Source: a virus (Duplodnaviria > Caudoviricetes). From it: a stretch of 37,938 nt of DNA. The translations under genes and the position numbers were made by a program. The notes beneath the pieces are model-generated. The model was given only the letters and a program-made list of their open reading frames with translations. It made no database searches and was not told where the DNA came from. The DNA is taken from positions 1-37,938 of the IMG/VR virus record IMGVR_UViG_3300030060_004988; one strand, given 5' to 3'. Shown here in pieces: positions 1-37,938 of the stretch (its first letter is position 1; the number at the start of each line of letters is the position of its first letter).

Positions 1-84
1 TAAGATCACTAGCATCACAGTTTTATCAGCTGCTTTGATTCCTCTTGCTTTTAAAACAAGGGTTTGAACTTCGAATTCATTCAT
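1..84 (-). CDS. 5' fragment of the replication initiator gene, truncated by the window edge
   Basis: Identical to 36650-36733 (MNEFEVQTLVLK...). Confidence 0.9.
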   Translation of the reverse strand, partial: MNEFEVQTLVLKARGIKAADKTVMLVIL

Positions 85-117
85 TGTACTTCTCCTTTTT
101 TACAATGGATGATTCTT

Positions 118-215
118 TTTATATATATTACTTGTTATTTTGTCAAACTGATTTATATTATTTTATAATTTTATTTGACAATGATTTTATTCTCATGTAA
201 GAAACATCATGTAAG
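118..215. promoter_or_regulatory. Divergent sigma70-type promoter region, left allele
   Basis: Back-to-back TTGACA hexamers (minus 141-146, plus 175-180). TATAAA at 17-bp spacing on the minus strand (118-123). Direct repeat TCATGTAAG at 193-201 and 207-215. Confidence 0.6.
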
Positions 216-237
216 CAAAAACATTCATGGAGGTAAC

Positions 238-456
238 ATGAGCAAATTAAAAAACAGAATCAAAGCAGCCTTAGCCAAAGAAGGATACAACCTGGCAGAT
301 TTGGCAAGACGCATGGATATTCATCAATCAAGTCTTTCAATATATTTAAGAGGCAATATGAGAATGAGCACAGCACTCAAGATCTCTTCATCACTTGCAG
401 ACATGACAGGATATCACTTAACTCTCAATGACTTCAGAAAGGATGAAGACCAATGA
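238..456 (+). CDS. Cro/XRE-family HTH regulator (Aca-like), allele A
   Basis: GGAGG RBS before ATG 238. HTH pattern LADLARRMDIHQSSLSIYLRG. Confidence 0.85.
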   Translation: MSKLKNRIKAALAKEGYNLADLARRMDIHQSSLSIYLRGNMRMSTALKISSSLADMTGYHLTLNDFRKDEDQ

Positions 457-668
457 ACTTTCACGCAGGAGATCAATTCATTGACCCCAATACTGATGAA
501 GTCTTTCACATTCAAGAGATGGAGGAGACTGTTGTTCATGCATTCAATCAACCGCCATTCAAAATCCATTCTTACTTTTTACAAGGTACTCAGGGCAATG
601 AACTTGAATTAAATCATTGTGAACTTGTGGACCTTATCAACAACGACCAACTCATTGAGGAGCTTTAA
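453..668 (+). CDS. Small acidic hypothetical protein, allele A
   Basis: ATGA overlap with the HTH gene. Frame conserved in the second copy (61/71 aa identical). Confidence 0.8.
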   Translation: MNFHAGDQFIDPNTDEVFHIQEMEETVVHAFNQPPFKIHSYFLQGTQGNELELNHCELVDLINNDQLIEEL

Positions 669-1043
669 ATGCTATACGCTATTATCTTAATCTTAATCTT
701 TGTAATTCTTTTCATGTGGGAAGAAGAACAACCAATCAAAATCAGCAAGTATTCACGAGTCATCAATCATGATGTTACATTGGCAATCTTTGAGGCCATG
801 AAGCGCATTGAAGAACGTGAAGACGAAGACATTCAATATCTTATAAACCAAGGCAAGGTCACCAAAGACATCATTGAGCAAGATGCTGATAAGATCATGT
901 TTCAGCGTGGGGAGTTCCCTGCTGAGATGACTTGCCTGGACGGTCGAGACTTTGCAAAGCTCGTCGTCGTATATCAAGAAAACGTGAGAGGAGCAAGCCA
1001 AGATCAGATCTCTTGGATGCTCAACTCAATCTTCAACTCTTAA
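669..1043 (+). CDS. Hypothetical protein with N-terminal membrane anchor
   Basis: Hydrophobic MLYAIILILIFVILFMW. Abuts the upstream stop codon. Confidence 0.8.
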   Translation: MLYAIILILIFVILFMWEEEQPIKISKYSRVINHDVTLAIFEAMKRIEEREDEDIQYLINQGKVTKDIIEQDADKIMFQRGEFPAEMTCLDGRDFAKLVVVYQENVRGASQDQISWMLNSIFNS

Positions 1044-1727: not shown

Positions 1728-2366
1728 ATGGGCAAAAGAAAATACTACAAAAAAAGTCAGATCATTGAATATTGGTTTAGCGATAAAGGGTTTGAACGAA
1801 TGTTTAAATGTCATAAAGATTTAGCATGCAGATTAGAGTATGATATACCTCATTGCTTTGCTTGCCAAAGAACAATGATTGATCTTGATAATAAACAGAA
1901 GTATGGAAATTTAAAAAACACTTCTGAAAATTGGGATATAGAATCAAACCTTGAAAAGTGTCACATCATACCACTGGCTCTCGGTGGAGATGATCACCCT
2001 TGCAACTTAGTTTTGTTATGTAAAGAATGCCATAAGTTAAACCCAAACACAGATGACGAGGATTTGTATTGGTTATGGATGAAAGGAGTAGAGGACTCTT
2101 ATTCTGCTGACGTAAAGAATTTTAAACAAGCTTTTAAAAACTTCAAAATTGATGGTGACTATTACATGATTTACCATGTAGAGATTCAAAAAATTATCCA
2201 CACAATATTACAAGATGAAAGTCAATTTTTAGTGGTTCCAAATGCCGGCAGATCATCAATGTTTGGAGCATCTCCCAACTTCACTCCTCTACTTTCTGTT
2301 ACAGCTAAAGCAATCAAAAAGCACAAAGAGCTTCAATCATCAAGTGGTCAGCTTTCATTATTTTAA
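1728..2366 (+). CDS. HNH endonuclease
   Basis: CFAC...LEKCHIIPLALGGDDHPCNLVLLCKECH zinc/HNH motif. Confidence 0.9.
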   Translation: MGKRKYYKKSQIIEYWFSDKGFERMFKCHKDLACRLEYDIPHCFACQRTMIDLDNKQKYGNLKNTSENWDIESNLEKCHIIPLALGGDDHPCNLVLLCKECHKLNPNTDDEDLYWLWMKGVEDSYSADVKNFKQAFKNFKIDGDYYMIYHVEIQKIIHTILQDESQFLVVPNAGRSSMFGASPNFTPLLSVTAKAIKKHKELQSSSGQLSLF

Positions 2367-7601: not shown

Positions 7602-9664
7602 ACAATCTCCCATTCTGATGCACCAACAACCAAAGTGATTGATGAATATAAGACACTTAGGGTTTGACTTGTAGCGCCGTCAATTGTATCGCTTCCTGCT
7701 CGATTAATAGTCACATCATAAGCGGCATCTCCTCGAGCTTGCAACTTGAATCTGATTTGTTGACCATCAGTCAAAGAACTTAAAGCAGGAAGGTTAACAA
7801 CAAATGTTGCACTATCTGCATTGATTGAATAATGATAATCAGCGGCAGGAGTCAACGGACTATGTGAAGCCGTGGTTCTCGCTTGATATGTCAGACCACC
7901 TCCACCGCTTGCTTGGTCCACCCAATCGAGATTTCCCGAACCATCACTTTTAAGTACTTGATCAGCATTTCCATCAGTATTTGGGAAGGTCAAAGTATAA
8001 GAAGCGGCAGCCGAATGAGGAGGACCTTTGAGAGATATACCATGTGAGTTTTGTTCACAGTTTAAAACAATTTGACCAGAACCACTTGTTGCATTTCCTT
8101 TGATTGTAACTTTGCCATTACCATCAGGAGCCAGTTCAATATCACCATTTGAAACACTTATGATGTCTTGACCATTGACATCAAGAGAGCCACCGAGTTG
8201 GGGGCTTGTGTCTTCCACAATATTGGTTGTAAGTCCTGTGAGTTGGGAACCATTGACAGCAGGAAGACCGACCGCATCAAGCAAGACAACGTTACCATTT
8301 GAAGTTCCGTGGTCTTTAACTGCCGCAGTTCCAAGTCCAAGATTGGTTCGTGCTGTCGTTGCATTATTAAGATCACTTAGATTGTTAGCAATAGCGAGTT
8401 TTGTGGCATCCGTTCCGGTGACATTCGTTAATTGAGAACCATTGACAGCAGGAAGACCAACCGCATCAAGTAAAACAAGATCACCATTTGAAGTTCCGTG
8501 GTCTTTGACTGCTGCAGTTCCAAGACCAAGATTCGTTCTTGCTGTTCCTGCATTATTGAGATCACTCAAGTTGTTAGCAATAGCCAACTTTGTGGCATCC
8601 GTTGAAACAATGTTTGTTAATTGGGATCCATCCACAGCAGGGAGCTTTGAAGTTCCATCAAGTTGAACAACGTTATTCGCACTTGTGCCAACGGTTTGAG
8701 TTGCCGCTGTACCAAGACCAAGATTCGTTCTTGCTGTCACTGCATTATTGAGATCACTTAAGTTGCTAGCAATAGCGAGTTTTGTGGCATCTGTTCCTGT
8801 GACTCCTGTGAGCTGTGATCCATCTACAGCAGGGAGACCGACCGCATCAAGCAGGACAACATTTCCATTTGCTGTTCCTGTGCTTTTAGTTGCCGCCGTA
8901 CCAAGACCAAGATTCGTTCTTGCTGTTCCTGCATTATTGAGATCACTTAGGTTGCTAGCAATAGCCAACTTTGTGGCATCCGTTCCGGTGACATTCGTTA
9001 ATTGAGAACCATTGACAGCAGGAAGACCAACCGCATCGAGTAAGACAAGATCACCGTTTGACGTTCCATGATCTTTGACTGCTGCAGTTCCAAGACCAAG
9101 ATTCGTTCTTGCTGTTCCTGCATTATTGAGATCACTCAAGTTGTTAGCAATAGCCAATTTTGTGGCATCCGTCCCTGTGACTCCTGTGAGCTGTGATCCA
9201 TCTACAGCAGGAAGACCAACCGCATCAAGCAGGACAACGTTACCGTTTGACGTTCCATGGTCTTTGACTGCCGCTGTACCAAGACCAAGGTTGGTTCTTG
9301 CCGTTGTTGCATTGTTAAGATCACTAAGGTTTGATGTTATTGCTAAAGCTCCAACATCAGCAGAATCCAATACAACAGGACCGGTTTTAGTATTGACTGA
9401 GACCACTGCATCAGTATTGTCAATCACATCAAACATTGCAGAAGTCACAGGGTTTGCAGAGTCCTGATTGAAAACAATATGATCTCCAACATTAAGGGTT
9501 ACCCCTGCCAACGTGCCAGCAACTGACACAATGTAGAAGTCACCTTTCTTTGCTGTAACTAATGAAGGGCTTGATGTGGTTGCATTGTATGAGCCTTTGT
9601 AAACAAGACCACCAGTGACAGCACCGCCGCCAGTTCCGCGGAATGATTCGAATTTAATACTCAT
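7598..9664 (-). CDS. Long repetitive tail fibre protein
   Basis: Six NLSDL..ARTNLGLG repeats, plus DTSPQLGGSLDVNG and QVLKSDGSGNLDW fibre motifs. Confidence 0.9.
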   Translation of the reverse strand: MSIKFESFRGTGGGAVTGGLVYKGSYNATTSSPSLVTAKKGDFYIVSVAGTLAGVTLNVGDHIVFNQDSANPVTSAMFDVIDNTDAVVSVNTKTGPVVLDSADVGALAITSNLSDLNNATTARTNLGLGTAAVKDHGTSNGNVVLLDAVGLPAVDGSQLTGVTGTDATKLAIANNLSDLNNAGTARTNLGLGTAAVKDHGTSNGDLVLLDAVGLPAVNGSQLTNVTGTDATKLAIASNLSDLNNAGTARTNLGLGTAATKSTGTANGNVVLLDAVGLPAVDGSQLTGVTGTDATKLAIASNLSDLNNAVTARTNLGLGTAATQTVGTSANNVVQLDGTSKLPAVDGSQLTNIVSTDATKLAIANNLSDLNNAGTARTNLGLGTAAVKDHGTSNGDLVLLDAVGLPAVNGSQLTNVTGTDATKLAIANNLSDLNNATTARTNLGLGTAAVKDHGTSNGNVVLLDAVGLPAVNGSQLTGLTTNIVEDTSPQLGGSLDVNGQDIISVSNGDIELAPDGNGKVTIKGNATSGSGQIVLNCEQNSHGISLKGPPHSAAASYTLTFPNTDGNADQVLKSDGSGNLDWVDQASGGGGLTYQARTTASHSPLTPAADYHYSINADSATFVVNLPALSSLTDGQQIRFKLQARGDAAYDVTINRAGSDTIDGATSQTLSVLYSSITLVVGASEWEIV
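8234..9346 (-). repeat. Six tandem coding repeats of about 189 bp (63 aa) in the fibre gene
   Basis: Unit LAIANNLSDLNNAGTARTNLGLGTAAVKDHGTSNG.(V/L)VLLDAVGLPAV(D/N)GSQLT.VTGTDATK. One unit is 64 aa. Confidence 0.95.
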
Positions 9665-29328: not shown

Positions 29329-30689
29329 TAGAAGTTAACCTTTCTTGATGAGCCAACTCGAACCTTTCGGTTCGGTTTGCTCTTTGGTTGATAGTTGCGA
29401 GCAGACTCAGTCCAATGATGAAAGATACAATCATATCTCAAAGCATCAAGTGGATCTTCCCTGCCGTCTTTCTTTGGTTGCTCTTTCTTATCCCATGCAT
29501 ATGAGAGGAGCGCTTTTCTGATTGAGTTACCGCTTGCCCTTTCCCCCTTCTCCCATACCTCTCGAGTGATCAGATACTTGCCCGAGTTGAAAGCTCTCTT
29601 CAATCTTTGGACACCATTGAGAACATCGGTTCGAACTGGATCAGTCGTTGACCTCATTGGCAAACCGATTCCACCTTCATCGGGATCCTTTCGAATTACT
29701 CTGAATGCTGAGAGTCCAGTGTGATCGCTTCTTGCTTTTCCTGCTTTATCAGCAACACCAGTATCAAGCCAAATTCTTTCTGATGGTGCTGATGATATCA
29801 ATGAACGAGGATATGCCACAGCAAGGATCATCAAGCTGAGTTGTTCAATAGTGACTTCCTTGGGGTTGAATTCGTGAACAATGATTGAGGCTTCTCTTTG
29901 CTCATCGTATACAATGATTAAGACTGATGGTTTTCTAAATCCCCAGTCAATCGCAATCCGGCCGGTCATGGATGGATGATAAACAAAGTCATCGATCACA
30001 TGCTTCTCATGATTGAATTCTGAATACACAAGACCACTCGGTGGTTTTGGTTTATTCATGACCATGGCTTCACGTTCATCAGGTGGAAGGAGCTTCGTTG
30101 CCTCAAACCACTCTTGACTCAAGTTCTCCTCGTTAACATATGAGGAGAAGAACAAGGGTTGACATTCAGCCTGCTCAGCTAACTTCACCCACCACGCATC
30201 AATGACAGGAAGACCAACGAGGATCATGATTGGAGATGGTCCACTTCTCAAACGACCGAGAGCTTTGTGTGCTACCTCAGAAGTCAGAGTCTGACATTCA
30301 TCAATCATGCATACTCCACTGGTGACATTCAAACCTTCAAGTGGATTGTGAGTTGCTTCTCTTGTGCCAGGTCGATAATAGGAGCGACACCAAACGGTTG
30401 AGCCGTTCTCGGTATCAGTCCATAGTTTATTTGTGTGATTGTAAATCCATCCAAGAGGAACCAACCACTTCTCAATCTCGGGCATCAATACCGAGTTATA
30501 GCGTGGAGTTGTATCTGTGACCATGAGTGATGAAGTGCCAGGTCGTAACTTTGAAACCAGCAACATTGAAAAGACTAAGGCTGAAGTCTTACCACTTCCC
30601 CATCCACATCGAGCAGCCACAACACGGTCTTGTTTTCCTATGGCCTTAAGGATTTGAGTCTGCAATGGATTGGGGTTAATGTTAATCAT
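29328..30689 (-). CDS. terL: Terminase large subunit
   Basis: Walker A CGWGSGKT, Walker B MIDECQ, nuclease motifs IDWGF and DPLDALRY. Confidence 0.95.
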   Translation of the reverse strand: MININPNPLQTQILKAIGKQDRVVAARCGWGSGKTSALVFSMLLVSKLRPGTSSLMVTDTTPRYNSVLMPEIEKWLVPLGWIYNHTNKLWTDTENGSTVWCRSYYRPGTREATHNPLEGLNVTSGVCMIDECQTLTSEVAHKALGRLRSGPSPIMILVGLPVIDAWWVKLAEQAECQPLFFSSYVNEENLSQEWFEATKLLPPDEREAMVMNKPKPPSGLVYSEFNHEKHVIDDFVYHPSMTGRIAIDWGFRKPSVLIIVYDEQREASIIVHEFNPKEVTIEQLSLMILAVAYPRSLISSAPSERIWLDTGVADKAGKARSDHTGLSAFRVIRKDPDEGGIGLPMRSTTDPVRTDVLNGVQRLKRAFNSGKYLITREVWEKGERASGNSIRKALLSYAWDKKEQPKKDGREDPLDALRYDCIFHHWTESARNYQPKSKPNRKVRVGSSRKVNF

Positions 30690-32629
30690 TTCTTTAGTTT
30701 TAATCCTTTTGAAGTCAATGCTTGTTGCACTTTGGTGTAAAGATTATATCCAAGTATTTGTCCCATGAGTTCATCATTCGTGATTTGATTATCAACTTTT
30801 AACTGTGGATAGTGTTTTGCAAATGCCATCTTATGAGCATGAGCCACTTTAATATCAAGCTCAACAACATGTTGAATCTCATGCATAATAGTCTCCTTGC
30901 GCTTATCTCCTCCCTTATACAAGCTGACAAAGTATTGTTGCATTTGCTTGAAGATGTCATGATTGGGATTGCAAAAGATTGTTGTTCCAAGTCTTGTGAC
31001 AAGTGATGTCATTGGATATGAGAAACCATTATAACCGATATAGCGACAATCTTCTTCATTAGTGGAAGGTTCCCAAAGGACACCTGCAAGAAGTTCTTTT
31101 TTCTTTTTGTTTTGAAGACTCTCTTTATTTAACTTATCGAGCTTCTCCTTCATCTTCTTGCTTAACTCTGGTTTATCTTTTTTGTCTTTGGATTTCGCTT
31201 TGGTCTTATCTCCATTAAGACTTAAATCAAGCTGATCCTCTCCTTCTTTGTCTGCTGCCATTTGCTCTTCAAGTTCTCGAGTTACTCTCAACTTAAACAA
31301 GAACTTATACTTTTTGAATATCGTTTCATCTGAATGTTTAAAGTTCATCTTCTTTTTTAAAGCATTGTCGATTGCATCAGATACTTCTTGAGGCATATTA
31401 TCAACATAATGTTCTCTGATCTCCTTCAAGTCTAAGACCTTTGTTTCTTGGTCTTTGCTTCCATCCTCAATCATGAGAGTGTCACGTCCTTCATTGGGGA
31501 ACACTCCATAATTTTTTTTAGGATCGTACTCAGGAGGAATAACAATAATCTTCACTTGACTCATGACTTCATCAGCAATGATCCCCCATTGTCTTGATGC
31601 TCGTTTCCCTGTTTCAAGATTGTATAATTCATTCTTATATTTTACTGCAATGAATCCATTGTTGTATGATGAAGGGTCAAAAAAAGAAGCTAACTTGTTA
31701 TAATTTTTTAAATTGTTTTTTTGCCTATGCATTGCATTTTTATTAAATAATGTAATGACTTTAAATCCATTTATTATACTTTCATCAATTTTTTTAAATC
31801 CTAATGCATAAGTATGATACTCGAAGCCATATAGTTGATAATTACCATTACTCTTTTTTGAAAGACTTCCTACACTCACACCATTCAACATATTAAATCT
31901 TTTATTAAGATAATAACTATAAGACATTTCCTTAAATGATTTGCCACTTGCATCACGACACCAAGTATTATCCGTTGAATGCATTCCACAAAAATAAACA
32001 ATAGTTCCATGCTTTTTGATTGTTTTGTGCTTGTTTTTATGATTATCAGCATTCCACCACTTAACCCCTTCAAATCCTCCTTCATCTTCATAGGTTGCCT
32101 CAAGCTCGCTCAAAGACACAACTTGCTTATATGTCAGTTCATACTCTCCATCATCTTGTTTTTCATATACTGGAATATGTCTGACACCAAATTGTTTTGC
32201 CTTCTTGTTGTAACACAACCAAATCATGTTGCCTTCATCTGACTCTCTTGTCCATGAGATGAACACAAGACCATAGTGATTGAAGTTGGCTGCAGTTGCT
32301 TTGATACCTATTCCAAAGTTGTCATGATGACCACCGCTGATCTTGGATGATGAATTATATTTATTAATATATTTCAACAACTGATCTGCGTTCATTCCGA
32401 CACCATTATCAAGAACGGACAATCTTTTGATTCCACCTGGCAACTCAGCATGCTCATGCAATGCCATTGGGCAAGGTTCAATCTTGATCTTTGTTGCACC
32501 TGCTTCGATTGAGTTCTGAACTGCTTCCCTCAAGAATTGCATGGGTGCGACTTGTCGCCCAAATCGAATCATTGTTGATGATGGTGAATCATCTTTTATC
32601 GGTGTGAATTGACTTCTCTTCATATTCAT
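30686..32629 (-). CDS. GHKL (MORC/HATPase_c_3-like) ATPase
   Basis: N-box LREAVQNSIEA, G1 DNGVGM, G2 NFGIGIK and later HGT. Lys-rich linker and C-terminal NPNH motif. Confidence 0.88.
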   Translation of the reverse strand: MNMKRSQFTPIKDDSPSSTMIRFGRQVAPMQFLREAVQNSIEAGATKIKIEPCPMALHEHAELPGGIKRLSVLDNGVGMNADQLLKYINKYNSSSKISGGHHDNFGIGIKATAANFNHYGLVFISWTRESDEGNMIWLCYNKKAKQFGVRHIPVYEKQDDGEYELTYKQVVSLSELEATYEDEGGFEGVKWWNADNHKNKHKTIKKHGTIVYFCGMHSTDNTWCRDASGKSFKEMSYSYYLNKRFNMLNGVSVGSLSKKSNGNYQLYGFEYHTYALGFKKIDESIINGFKVITLFNKNAMHRQKNNLKNYNKLASFFDPSSYNNGFIAVKYKNELYNLETGKRASRQWGIIADEVMSQVKIIVIPPEYDPKKNYGVFPNEGRDTLMIEDGSKDQETKVLDLKEIREHYVDNMPQEVSDAIDNALKKKMNFKHSDETIFKKYKFLFKLRVTRELEEQMAADKEGEDQLDLSLNGDKTKAKSKDKKDKPELSKKMKEKLDKLNKESLQNKKKKELLAGVLWEPSTNEEDCRYIGYNGFSYPMTSLVTRLGTTIFCNPNHDIFKQMQQYFVSLYKGGDKRKETIMHEIQHVVELDIKVAHAHKMAFAKHYPQLKVDNQITNDELMGQILGYNLYTKVQQALTSKGLKLKK

Positions 32630-34641: not shown

Positions 34642-35087
34642 AGTGGAAGACTCACTGGATGAAGCATGCTCAATTAATTGCATCGATGTCACCTTGTCCA
34701 CGTGCTCAAGTTGGAGCATTCATCATTGACGAAAACAACAATCCAATCAGCGCCGGCTTTAATGGTCCTCCTCGAAAGTCATCATCAAGTCTTTGTGGTG
34801 ATGATCATGAATGTGCTCGAGATATTATGAAGATTGAATCAGGTACAAGGACCGAAGTTGGATGTCATCATGCTGAAGCCAATGCAATTGCAAATGCTGC
34901 TCGGAAAGGTGTTGGGCTTGAAGGAACAACTATTATCATCAGTATTCCTCCCTGTGTTGCATGCGCTAAATTGATTCATCATGCTGGCATTAAATCAGTT
35001 GCTATTTCATCGAGTGGATATTCTTTGGATGGTGTGCACTATCTTGAGTCAAATAATATTAAAGTGTTTTCATTGTCCCCAAACTGA
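34638..35087 (+). CDS. dCMP deaminase
   Basis: SPCPRAQVGA, GFNGPP, HAEANA and PCVAC zinc motifs. ATGA overlap with thyX. Confidence 0.93.
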   Translation: MKWKTHWMKHAQLIASMSPCPRAQVGAFIIDENNNPISAGFNGPPRKSSSSLCGDDHECARDIMKIESGTRTEVGCHHAEANAIANAARKGVGLEGTTIIISIPPCVACAKLIHHAGIKSVAISSSGYSLDGVHYLESNNIKVFSLSPN

Positions 35088-35984
35088 TGATGTATTCAAT
35101 GGACTTCTTCGATCTCGTCCAGTCATCTCAATCGGTTGCTGGAACATCTCCTGCATTCTTGATAGAGCTGCATAATTACCATCAAATAATTTATCTCTTA
35201 ACATGGATGGATGAATGTTAGTTGTGAAGATGACAGACATCTTTCCAGACTTCCACTTTTCATATATTGATCCAATCAACTCAATGGTCGTGTTCTTGAA
35301 CCAATCAGAATACTTGTGAACACCACCACCAAGGCCGCCGAATTCATCAAGACAAAGTACTTCGACATCATTCAAGAACTGATCGAGATGAGGCTTTGAT
35401 GTATTATCATTCCAAGAGTTCTTCTCTGCTTCAAAGGTTCGATAGTGATGAGCATACTTAACTTTGAATCCTTGGGAGGTCTTGTGTTTTGCAATGATGT
35501 ATAAGAGACTCGACTTGCCATTGCCAGGTCTTCCATGCATCAAGAATGAAGGAGGCTTATTGATTCTATCCCAAGAGATCATCTCCTCAAATGCATTCTT
35601 TTGAAGTGCACTATCGAATTCATATTCTGAAAGTGAGGCATTCAAAGCATCATTCGGCAGCTGTGATCTCAATAATAGATTAAGTGACTTCTTAAGCTTT
35701 CCACAGTTACGACAAGGAATTGCATTGGGTTCACTGTTCTCCCTTGTGAACTCGTACCCTTCAACACAACGTTCACATGGAGGTTGATTAACTGCAAGGC
35801 ATCGATTGCTCCCTGCTTTGATGAGATCATAAAGATGATATTCGTCGGGGTTGAAGTTCGACCAGTCTTGATTGACTTTGAATTGTAAAGGTTCTCTGTT
35901 TGGATCTTGAATAAACTCTTGAAGCGAGTTCAATAATTTTTTTAGTTCAGGACTATCACCAAGGCGCTCCATTATTAACTCCAT
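35070..35984 (-). CDS. DnaC/IstB-like AAA+ helicase loader
   Basis: CERC/CRNC zinc finger, Walker A GRPGNGKS, Walker B LCLDEFG, IFTTN, SR and G.DRR. Confidence 0.88.
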   Translation of the reverse strand: MELIMERLGDSPELKKLLNSLQEFIQDPNREPLQFKVNQDWSNFNPDEYHLYDLIKAGSNRCLAVNQPPCERCVEGYEFTRENSEPNAIPCRNCGKLKKSLNLLLRSQLPNDALNASLSEYEFDSALQKNAFEEMISWDRINKPPSFLMHGRPGNGKSSLLYIIAKHKTSQGFKVKYAHHYRTFEAEKNSWNDNTSKPHLDQFLNDVEVLCLDEFGGLGGGVHKYSDWFKNTTIELIGSIYEKWKSGKMSVIFTTNIHPSMLRDKLFDGNYAALSRMQEMFQQPIEMTGRDRRSPLNTSSVWGQ

Positions 35985-36733
35985 GTCTTTTTGATCTGTG
36001 CATTTGAACGATAAAGATCAAAGTCTTCTCTGATCTCTGCTTTCTTGAAAGCTTCAAAGATTCTTGCTTGATTGAATGGATTTGTTTCAATCGTCTTCTT
36101 GTGATGTGCCCAACGTCTTTCAATCTCAAGTCTTCGATGTAGTGCTTTGAGAACATGAAGAGGAACTTTGCCACGATCATCACACATATGAGATAGATTT
36201 TTAAATTCTTGATTCTCAGTGTATTCCATTGCCTCTTCTTTTGTCACAAGTTTCAGATCTTCTTTATTGATATCTATATTGATATCTTTATTGGTTATAT
36301 TGGTTATATTGATATATGCATCATTTTGAGACATGGTAGGCTCATTTTGATACACGGTAGGCTCATTTTGATACACGGTGTTATCATTTTGAGACAACGG
36401 TTGTGTCATTTTGATACTATCGATAGGCTCATTTTGAGACAACGGTTGACTCATTTTGATACTATCGATATTTACTTTGATTGTAGTCTGGAATTTATTA
36501 AATGCTGTTCTGTCACAATCCACAGTCAACCAACCAGCTGCTTTCAATCTTTTCATTGCTCTTGCAAATGTTGCTCTCGGGATATCAGCATACTCACAAA
36601 GGTATGTTTGAGTGATTCGACCAATCCAAGTTTCCCAATCAACATGTTTTAAGATCACTAGCATCACAGTTTTATCAGCTGCTTTGATTCCTCTTGCTTT
36701 TAAAACAAGGGTTTGAACTTCGAATTCATTCAT
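35975..36733 (-). CDS. Replication initiator with N-terminal winged HTH (lambda O-like layout)
   Basis: TQTYLCEYADIPRATFARAMKRLKAAGWL, internal xQNEP repeats, upstream of the DnaC-like gene. Confidence 0.8.
   Translation of the reverse strand: MNEFEVQTLVLKARGIKAADKTVMLVILKHVDWETWIGRITQTYLCEYADIPRATFARAMKRLKAAGWLTVDCDRTAFNKFQTTIKVNIDSIKMSQPLSQNEPIDSIKMTQPLSQNDNTVYQNEPTVYQNEPTMSQNDAYINITNITNKDINIDINKEDLKLVTKEEAMEYTENQEFKNLSHMCDDRGKVPLHVLKALHRRLEIERRWAHHKKTIETNPFNQARIFEAFKKAEIREDFDLYRSNAQIKKTWS
36260..36463. repeat. Putative replication origin: seven iterons plus an AT-rich tract
   Basis: TCATTTTGA(G/T)AC starts at 36321, 36342, 36363, 36384, 36406, 36429 and 36451. AT-rich repeats at about 36260-36320. 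Confidence 0.85.
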
Positions 36734-36763
36734 TGTGTTCTCCTTTTTTACAATGGATGACTT

Positions 36764-36866
36764 ATATTGTATAATGTGAATTATTTTGTCAATAAAATAT
36801 TTTATTTAGTTTTTTTTAAAAAATATTTGACATAGCAAATGAATTATTATAATACTTGATTATCAA
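36764..36866. promoter_or_regulatory. Divergent promoter region, right allele, with palindromic operator candidates
   Basis: TTGACA on minus 36787-36792 and plus 36827-36832. TATAAT at 36848-36853 (15-bp spacer, shorter than canonical). Palindromes AATAAAATATTTTATT (36791-36806) and TTGAT-T-ATCAA (36856-36866). Confidence 0.6.
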
Positions 36867-36879
36867 CAAAGGAGACGCT

Positions 36880-37359
36880 ATGAAACTTTATCACACAAGT
36901 CCAGAACTAATCACAAACATCAATTCATCATATGACAACGAATTTCAAGGAGCTTTGTTTTTCAGTTCTACTCCATACTTTATGTCAGGAGCTTCAAAGA
37001 TTGTATATGAAATTGAAATTGCAGAAGATCAAATTTTAGAAGTTTGTGATCTTGAGTATAACCAAGAAATAATTGACGAAATTAAAGACAGGTTTAATGT
37101 TCTTTTTGATATTGAAATTGATGATGATGATGCTTATGACTATCTTTTAGAAGATTTAAGCGTATGGAATACAATATCCGACTCTGACAATTGTGCTGAT
37201 TTTGATTGGTTTATACAAGGGATTCAGGCTAAAGCAGCAAAAAAAGAAAACTATGTTGCTGTTGAAGCTGAAGATGAGCAAGGGACAGTCTTCATTATTA
37301 ACATGATCAATAAAGAGTCACTTTTAAAAGATGTAACATCTAAATTTTTAGGAGCATAA
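36880..37359 (+). CDS. AcrIF11-like ADP-ribosyltransferase (anti-CRISPR candidate)
   Basis: AAGGAG RBS. N-terminal LYHTS, FQGALFFS and C-terminal W.IQ...A..AK...Y.AVE.EDEQGT match the AcrIF11 family pattern as I recall it. Very acidic; directly upstream of an HTH gene. Confidence 0.75.
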   Translation: MKLYHTSPELITNINSSYDNEFQGALFFSSTPYFMSGASKIVYEIEIAEDQILEVCDLEYNQEIIDEIKDRFNVLFDIEIDDDDAYDYLLEDLSVWNTISDSDNCADFDWFIQGIQAKAAKKENYVAVEAEDEQGTVFIINMINKESLLKDVTSKFLGA

Positions 37360-37360
37360 A

Positions 37361-37582
37361 ATGAGCAAATTGAAACGACGAATCAAATCATCATTAGCAA
37401 GCCAAGGGTATACTATGACTCAACTTGCTGAGAAGATGGGTATCACACAATCGCAGCTCTCAAACTATTTGAGAAGCCAAGGAATCAAGATGAATACAGC
37501 ATTAAGAATTGCTGATGGTCTTGCAGATATGACAGGCTATCAATTGACTCTTGATGACTTTCGAAAGGATGAGGACCAATGA
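37361..37582 (+). CDS. Cro/XRE-family HTH regulator (Aca-like), allele B
   Basis: HTH MTQLAEKMGITQSQLSNYLR. 46/73 aa identical to allele A by manual alignment. Confidence 0.88.
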   Translation: MSKLKRRIKSSLASQGYTMTQLAEKMGITQSQLSNYLRSQGIKMNTALRIADGLADMTGYQLTLDDFRKDEDQ

Positions 37583-37794
37583 ACTTTCAAGCCGGTGATC
37601 AATTTATTGACCCCAACACGGACGAAGTATTTCACATTCAAGAGATGGAGGAGGCCACGGCTTATCCTTTTAATCAACCACCTGAAAAGGTTTATTCTTA
37701 CTTTTTACGAGGTACCCAAGGCAATGAACTTGAATTAAATCATTGTGAACTTGTGGACCTTATCAACAACGACCAACTCATTGAGGAGCTTTAA
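37579..37794 (+). CDS. Small acidic hypothetical protein, allele B
   Basis: Homolog of 453-668. Confidence 0.8.
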   Translation: MNFQAGDQFIDPNTDEVFHIQEMEEATAYPFNQPPEKVYSYFLRGTQGNELELNHCELVDLINNDQLIEEL

Positions 37795-37938
37795 ATGTTA
37801 TACGCTATTATCTTAATCTTAATCTGTGTAATTCTTTTCATGTGGGAAGAAGACCAACCCATCAAAATCAGCAAGTATTCACGAGTGATCAATCATGATG
37901 TTACCTTGTCAATCTTTGAGGCCATGAAAAGAATCGAG
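37795..37938 (+). CDS. Partial second allele of the membrane-anchored protein, truncated by the window edge
   Basis: Homolog of 669-812 with several substitutions. Confidence 0.85.
   Translation, partial: MLYAIILILICVILFMWEEDQPIKISKYSRVINHDVTLSIFEAMKRIE

Follow-up and report, generated by a model that had tools for sequence, protein, structure and literature searches.

An optional AcrIF11-family ADP-ribosyltransferase gene in front of a core HTH gene in phages known from uncultured sequences

The stretch of DNA analysed here (the window) comprises all of virus record G000 (37,938 bases, rated complete and devoid of end repeats). It carries close to its right end an optional gene for a 159-residue ADP-ribosyltransferase of the AcrIF11 family (36880..37359, plus strand), assigned through NF052490, the structure 8DWQ, fold searches and dN/dS. 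We lean, by a modest amount, towards the reading in which this enzyme ADP-ribosylates and inactivates the type I-F Cascade of the host early, while the core HTH protein encoded directly behind it would shut off the promoter shared by both.

The locus is built around a divergent promoter region of 146 bp with 21% GC (36734..36879), which holds a rightward TTGACA (36827-36832, plus strand, with a -10 at 17 or 18 nt) and a leftward one (36792-36787, minus strand). To the left, and divergent from the enzyme gene, lies a lambda O-like initiator gene (35975..36733, minus strand; weak matches to PHROG 345, 270 and 678, E 5e-6 to 7e-5), next to which comes a DnaC-like loader (35070-35984; phrog_50, E 4e-26). 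Six 21-nt repeats of family D6 inside the initiator gene (36334..36463) are, going by the lambda O/ori arrangement, presumably origin iterons. Compared with L005, L006 and L009, the initiator occurs in two N-terminal types, which have different internal repeats and a common C-terminus and are swapped among close relatives. To the right, an AGGAG ribosome site (36870-36874) precedes the enzyme gene, the first one behind the rightward promoter, so that the first-expressed position proposed for it earlier holds as regards position, with expression being predicted. It is followed by the XRE (Cro/C1-type) HTH gene of 73 amino acids (37361..37582, plus strand; PF01381, E 1.1e-8), by a hypothetical 71-aa gene that overlaps the HTH stop (37579..37794, plus strand), by a 124-aa gene and by RecT (left copy, 669-1043 and 1068-1628).

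An AcrIF11-family enzyme with its catalytic residues in place

The sequence-only reading had described a 159-aa acidic ORF with several motifs and had named it an AcrIF11-like ADP-ribosyltransferase, and both statements are borne out. The ORF shows the quoted motifs and 34 Asp/Glu against 10 Lys/Arg (pI about 4.05), and its product matches phrog_11282 as well as NF052490, the latter with 99.4 bits (curated cut-off 50) over profile positions 1-142 of 142. The best PDB sequence match is 8DWQ (E 1.8e-16), which corresponds to AcrIF11Pae2 (PMC12421852); a Pfam search of the enzyme gave no match, though the protein index nonetheless assigns PF26151. The comparison with AcrIF11 by profile and by structure, which had been put forward as a check, returned 8DWQ and 6KYF both ways. 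Profile A5, made of 100 single-domain relatives (the query, 9 close ones and 90 picked by length from 150 listed), finds 8DWQ at E 2.7e-49 and 6KYF at E 6.4e-12, the next match being at E 0.36. Concerning the fold, the predicted model (pLDDT 94.3) has 8DWQ and 6KYF on top in Foldseek (E 1.2e-7 and 3.1e-6), most of the further matches there being RES-family toxins, and VIA yields 6KYF with Z 10.1 (rmsd 2.9, 120 aligned) and 8DWQ with Z 9.3 (rmsd 3.7, 142 aligned), the next having Z 6.8. The ORF is hence a genuine AcrIF11-family member, with a predicted ADP-ribosyltransferase fold.

Counted along the 8DWQ alignment, residues H5, Y33, D132 and E133 align to H20, Y46, D146 and E147 of AcrIF11Pae2, whose double mutants H20A/Y46A and D146A/E147A are reported to lose activity altogether (PMC12421852). 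Over 100 aligned rows H5, D132 and E133 are conserved in all 100 and Y33 in 99. Residues 56-125, with 20 Asp/Glu against 5 Lys/Arg, fit the contact to Csy3 K58/K60 that the Discussion of PMC12421852 proposes for the acidic helical insert of AcrIF11. The dN/dS of the enzyme gene is 0.17 between the window and L002 and 0.10 between L002 and L008, the comparison of the window with L008 being saturated. Family, catalytic residues and low dN/dS together indicate that the gene is intact and under selection, and judged from its sequence the product is very probably an active ADP-ribosyltransferase.

The enzyme had also been called a divergent member, which overstates its distance: it is about 30% identical to AcrIF11Pae2 and about 22% to AcrIF11Pae1, and between these two tested homologs the similarity is itself only about 27% (PMC12421852). 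In a quick tree, which contains neither 8DWQ nor 6KYF and in which most deep forks are open, the nine closest rows form their own clade (SH-aLRT 99) apart from a Vibrio phage homolog. The GC3 of the enzyme gene, 0.22, is the lowest of the 11 genes measured. Fold, length and the His/Tyr/Asp-Glu catalytic set are shared with AcrIF11Pae2 (8DWQ), AcrIF11Pae1 (6KYF), NF052490 and phrog_11282, as are the acidic helical insert, the location in a phage and the small DNA-binding gene behind. Unlike these, the enzyme described here belongs to a clade of its own within a phage group known from uncultured sequences and sits in a core early operon beside an initiator gene.

Relatives of Vibrio phage H20, which infect Vibrio anguillarum, carry an unannotated AcrIF11 homolog (L012:4004-4629) that is 34.6% identical; it has a small gene behind it and an inverted repeat between -35 and -10.

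Target and host

Both tested AcrIF11 homologs modify Csy1 (PMC12421852), and the enzyme is no further from AcrIF11Pae2 than AcrIF11Pae1 is, so that parsimony favours type I-F. By this analogy we hold, with moderate confidence, that type I-F Cascade is the likeliest target, in a host that our searches did not identify. Relatives of the terminase and the initiator were absent from 185,579 genomes, where 39 and 118 pattern matches gave 0 confirmed cases. The capsid had no match among cultured phages, and the terminase is less than 25% identical to those of the listed cultured phages. The cluster names of relatives read only 'hypothetical', apart from one unclassified bacterium and one archaeal bin, and searches with ThyX, SSB and the sigma factor pointed to no taxon for the host. 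Judging by titles and the beginnings of abstracts, neither of two papers found on AcrIF11 in a marine context deals with such phages.

The main alternative keeps the same enzyme and slot and supposes another target, either some other type I Cascade or a defence protein outside CRISPR, in a host that is not a type I-F gammaproteobacterium; we regard it as unlikely, though worth pursuing. The promoters of the family (window 36827-36856 and the matching sites) keep TTGACA-N17-TA and mostly miss the -7T, which is a possible host signature. At the conserved 17-nt spacing T-12 and A-11 are kept and a -7T is found in 1/16 family loci and in 11/13 other acrIF11 loci (that is, it is missing from 15/16 family promoters and from 2/13 controls), and loss of -7T is described as typical of Alphaproteobacteria (PMC8407463; PMC7703639). 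Against this, allowing an 18-nt spacer makes 7 of 15 family promoters, among them that of the window, look canonical, and the family promoters are kin, so the -7T counts are not independent. The published genus list for AcrIF11 counts 37 genera (supplement). Only one control locus comes with a named host (L012, Vibrio). The 37 genera are mostly Gammaproteobacteria, with a few outside genera and none known to be alphaproteobacterial. Taken together, the promoter signature is a weak pointer to a host outside the Gammaproteobacteria, and hence perhaps to another target.

Two further points count for the other-target alternative together with the clade of its own described above. The first is that the helical insert of AcrIF11 is variable and has been proposed to set specificity (PMC12421852). 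The second is the wider occurrence of the domain: 25 of the 150 listed relatives exceed 250 aa, and the five fusion proteins tested (P0064, P0124, P0137, P0072 and P0088) all pass the NF052490 cut-off, which makes the AcrIF11 family wider than acr-aca loci. In P0064, P0124 and P0137 the AcrIF11-type domain, the same as in our enzyme, occurs along with ART-PolyVal, as in the polyvalent phage ART proteins (PMC9503650); those are fusions of 2,400-2,700 aa, whereas the enzyme here has an early gene to itself. Other domains found across the five are LPD22/LPD38, pyrophosphatase or zeta-toxin-like ones. Since domains of polyvalent proteins score above the cut-off, family membership does not fix the target. 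What mainly speaks for Csy1 is that both tested homologs modify it in spite of their low mutual similarity, a span within which the enzyme falls. If the host should lack type I-F, this would be the first sign of other AcrIF11 targets and would bear on the question of substrate recognition.

An optional slot between initiator and HTH

Enzyme, initiator and HTH, each used as a query, led to 33 records with initiator and HTH, which reduce to 24 distinct rep-to-HTH sequences; L077, with no initiator on its contig, and repeat copies of the same contigs are omitted from this census. The slot is empty in 18 of the 24, holds the enzyme in 4 (window right end, L001/L002, L008 and L046) and another gene in 2, in line with the suggestion that the enzyme gene is facultative. 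As L046 was recovered only via the enzyme, the unbiased count is 3/23. It is a distant member, tied to the group by ThyX, DnaC, SSB, RecT and gene order, its initiator being recognised by position only. Five genomes were searched for an enzyme homolog elsewhere, and none of the four near-complete ones with an enzyme-free slot has one.

L008, with the enzyme, and L006/L007, without it, have identical HTH proteins and share 140-141 of 146 promoter bases, and the empty form follows an L008-like sequence up to the first GGAG and then continues with the HTH start of L008. A second AGGAG (37350..37354, plus strand), in the last codons of the enzyme gene, is the likely ribosome site of the HTH. From these sequences, a crossover between the GGAG ribosome sites at both ends of the ORF is a plausible route of gain and loss. 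Between the window and L002 the dS is 0.40 for the enzyme, 1.3-2.8 for five flanking genes, one of which is the HTH with 1.6; between the window and L008 it is saturated for the enzyme and 0.5-1.3 for the same five genes. The enzyme is therefore out of step with its neighbours and moves alone, without the HTH.

Both states are also found together in public assemblies. X1, a marine metagenome that may be the sample from which the record came, and X2 each contain both, with contig depths, which are not allele frequencies, of 26.5 without and 4.86 with the enzyme in X1, and of 35.6 and 15 without and 10.2 with it in X2; this contig evidence leaves out runs X4 and X6-X21. One joint in X2 skips exactly 36870-37360. 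None of the public runs listed is an RNA run.

The sequence-only reading had expected other cargo in the slot and had proposed to collect genes between initiator and HTH, which turned up one other cargo family in the 2 remaining loci of the census. It consists of P0372/P0373, of 83-102 aa, 45% identical to each other and unrelated to the enzyme, and was found at four viral loci, distant relatives, always in the same slot (L043:3602-3853, L042:257-508, L040:3365-3673 and L085:3001-3252). It has no match in PHROGs, NCBIfam, Pfam or Atlas, and its predicted model is poor (pLDDT 56.5). A bolder version of the other-target alternative seems to us doubtful: in it the host would be non-gammaproteobacterial, this AcrIF11 clade would have shifted from type I-F Cascade to another defence, and the slot would serve as an anti-defence socket, with a new inhibitor as its second tenant.

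The HTH gene as a probable core regulator

The observation that an HTH gene starts 1 bp after the stop of the ORF is correct, the enzyme ending at 37359 and the HTH ATG lying at 37361. The labels attached to it, an acr-aca operon and a new Aca marker, are not supported. The HTH is present in 24/24 distinct loci, 18 of which have nothing upstream of it, and in every locus it heads the RecT-bound operon opposite the initiator. With a dN/dS of 0.13-0.14 it is under purifying selection as core genes are. Being kept in every member examined, it is likely the phage's own early regulator and not a dedicated anti-CRISPR partner; we are confident, on comparative grounds, in calling it a core gene of this phage group. 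Its nearest PDB sequences are HipB, ImmR-like and SinR, and no Aca-named match was seen in Pfam, NCBIfam or PDB sequences (0 of 14 PDB matches, E up to 0.5), a comparison in which no Aca HMM set was included.

That the arrangement is nevertheless a true acr-aca operon, in which the HTH would represent a new family of dedicated Aca proteins and the loci with nothing in the slot would be orphans after loss of cargo, appears improbable. The gene order, with a small PF01381 gene directly behind the acr in one operon, and the 1-bp spacing fit such a view, and so does the presence of the same HTH behind the second cargo family in 4/4 viral loci found. Moreover, only 15% of known Aca homologs are reported to adjoin a known acr (PMC9410906), so that an Aca would be compatible with empty loci as such. 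It is opposed by the fixed position between initiator and RecT operon, by the core-like dN/dS, by the lack of Aca-named PDB matches and by the behaviour of the gene itself, which is identical in both states of the slot, does not move with the cargo and belongs to the core module.

The promoter region gives no further help to the Aca interpretation. Its description as AT-rich with palindromes is right for the base composition and fails for the palindromes, which are not above chance: the best inverted repeat upstream was equalled or beaten by 17 of 200 shuffles or, when scoring was information-weighted, by 28 of 100. Palindromes as HTH operators were accordingly rejected, and the inverted-repeat shuffle tests of the promoter region found no operator above chance. 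Known Aca promoters have inverted repeats in the core promoter (PMC9410906; PMC12658196), and inverted repeats above shuffles occur in 6/13 unrelated acrIF11 loci and in 1/16 promoters of this phage group, a test that a short or degenerate operator would escape. Whatever the cargo, the rightward TTGAC hexamer can be made out in all but two of the 24 distinct loci, namely L046 and L040 (22 of 24).

A close described parallel is the acrIF11-aca7 operon of Halomonas caseinilytica (PMC12658196), where, as here, a strong promoter is followed by acr and HTH genes and self-repression is plausible. The binding site of Aca7 in its own promoter is a 19-bp inverted repeat (PMC12658196), of which there is no counterpart above chance here, and the HTH of our phages differs in being core, in not moving with the acr and in heading a longer operon that ends in RecT. 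The gene order of the locus is also reminiscent of lambdoid phages.

In the lambdoid divergent control region an XRE repressor lies between the replication and recombination operons. Back-to-back promoters are common to both; here one side carries an O-like initiator with internal repeats and DnaC, and the other an XRE HTH and RecT, with a single short HTH, no peptidase-bearing CI or integrase among the ORFs scanned, and optional cargo before the HTH. Seen from the sequence, the HTH probably represses the promoter ahead of the enzyme, and it may do so at both divergent promoters. It may thus work like an Aca in function, although linkage to cargo, a defining Aca feature, is lacking. Marker-based acr hunting calls for caution here, as the HTH gene next to an acr can turn out to be a core regulator.

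Proposed mechanism

In the mechanism that we favour, an anti-CRISPR has inserted behind a core early promoter and is likely borrowing the phage's own XRE repressor for its shut-off. The rightward promoter, which is near consensus, would fire on DNA entry and make the enzyme the first product. By analogy with the family, the enzyme would use NAD+ to modify Cas8f in assembled Cascade, and its acidic helical insert may dock on basic Cas7f residues. The HTH, translated from the site in the last codons of the enzyme gene, would then accumulate and repress the promoter, doing the job of an Aca without being a dedicated one. The enzyme would pay only in hosts with the target system, which could let carriers and non-carriers coexist.

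The first-gene position would also suit an enzyme for host takeover, of the kind of T4 Mod/Alt, with the transcription or translation machinery of the host as its substrate, and the ARTs of polyvalent phage proteins have been proposed to target host macromolecules (PMC9503650). Such a role is very unlikely for a gene that most relatives lack; moreover, AcrIF11 is reported to have modified only Csy1 in P. aeruginosa (PMC12421852), and neither family nor fold searches gave a Mod/Alt match.

The window and its two alleles

Among the gene products of the window are terminase, portal, capsid, tail fibre, ribonucleotide reductase, ThyX, dCMP deaminase and SSB, in addition to the DnaC-like loader, the O-like initiator and RecT; the ORFs scanned showed no integrase. 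One locus is present twice, as bases 1-811 and as bases 36650-37938, in versions whose first 112 bases are 98% identical and which converge again downstream. The most likely explanation is that the genome is circular and that the record ends in the two alleles of a bubble. The second allele (1..811) contains the 5' end of the initiator gene (1-84), a different promoter (85-237) and an HTH (238-456) identical to that of L005/L018 and L078, and has no enzyme gene. Its own junctions are known from the window, L005/L078 and a single joint in an X1 contig, which passes from 36760 to 37520 with 281 other letters in between.

The ORF had been said to be cleanly absent from this other allele; the absence holds, the cleanness does not. 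Within the window the promoters are identical at 96 of 144 aligned bases and the HTH is 64% identical, and since both differ as well, the whole block has been swapped and not the ORF alone. Clean absence of only the ORF occurs elsewhere, in L006, L007 and L009 compared with L008, and at the X2 contig joint described above.

Hardly credible, and already largely refuted by independent loci, is the view that assembly produced a chimera here or that the gene is decayed: the record does join two alleles at its ends, is longer than its relatives (37,938 against 36,359 and 36,778) and has no single examined contig spanning the whole stretch, but the same gene order recurs in L001/L002, L008 and L046, contigs of X5 (36441-37340, linking rep to the enzyme gene) and X2 (36845-37476) bridge the locus, and the frame is open with the low dN/dS given above.

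Several other places in these genomes vary too. A second variable slot after RecT (window 1728-2366) holds an HNH endonuclease gene in the window and in L006 and unrelated ORFs in L005, L008 and L009. An optional ECF-type sigma factor gene lies between ThyX and dCMP deaminase in L008 (1801-2274), with similar ORFs in L006, L007 and L009, and is absent from the window. Between the small and large terminase genes, a lower-GC stretch of the window encodes a 647-aa protein with an N-terminal GHKL ATPase (30686-32629, minus strand), where L003 has a different ORF. The tail fibre gene (8228-9331) contains about six repeat units of 189-192 bp.
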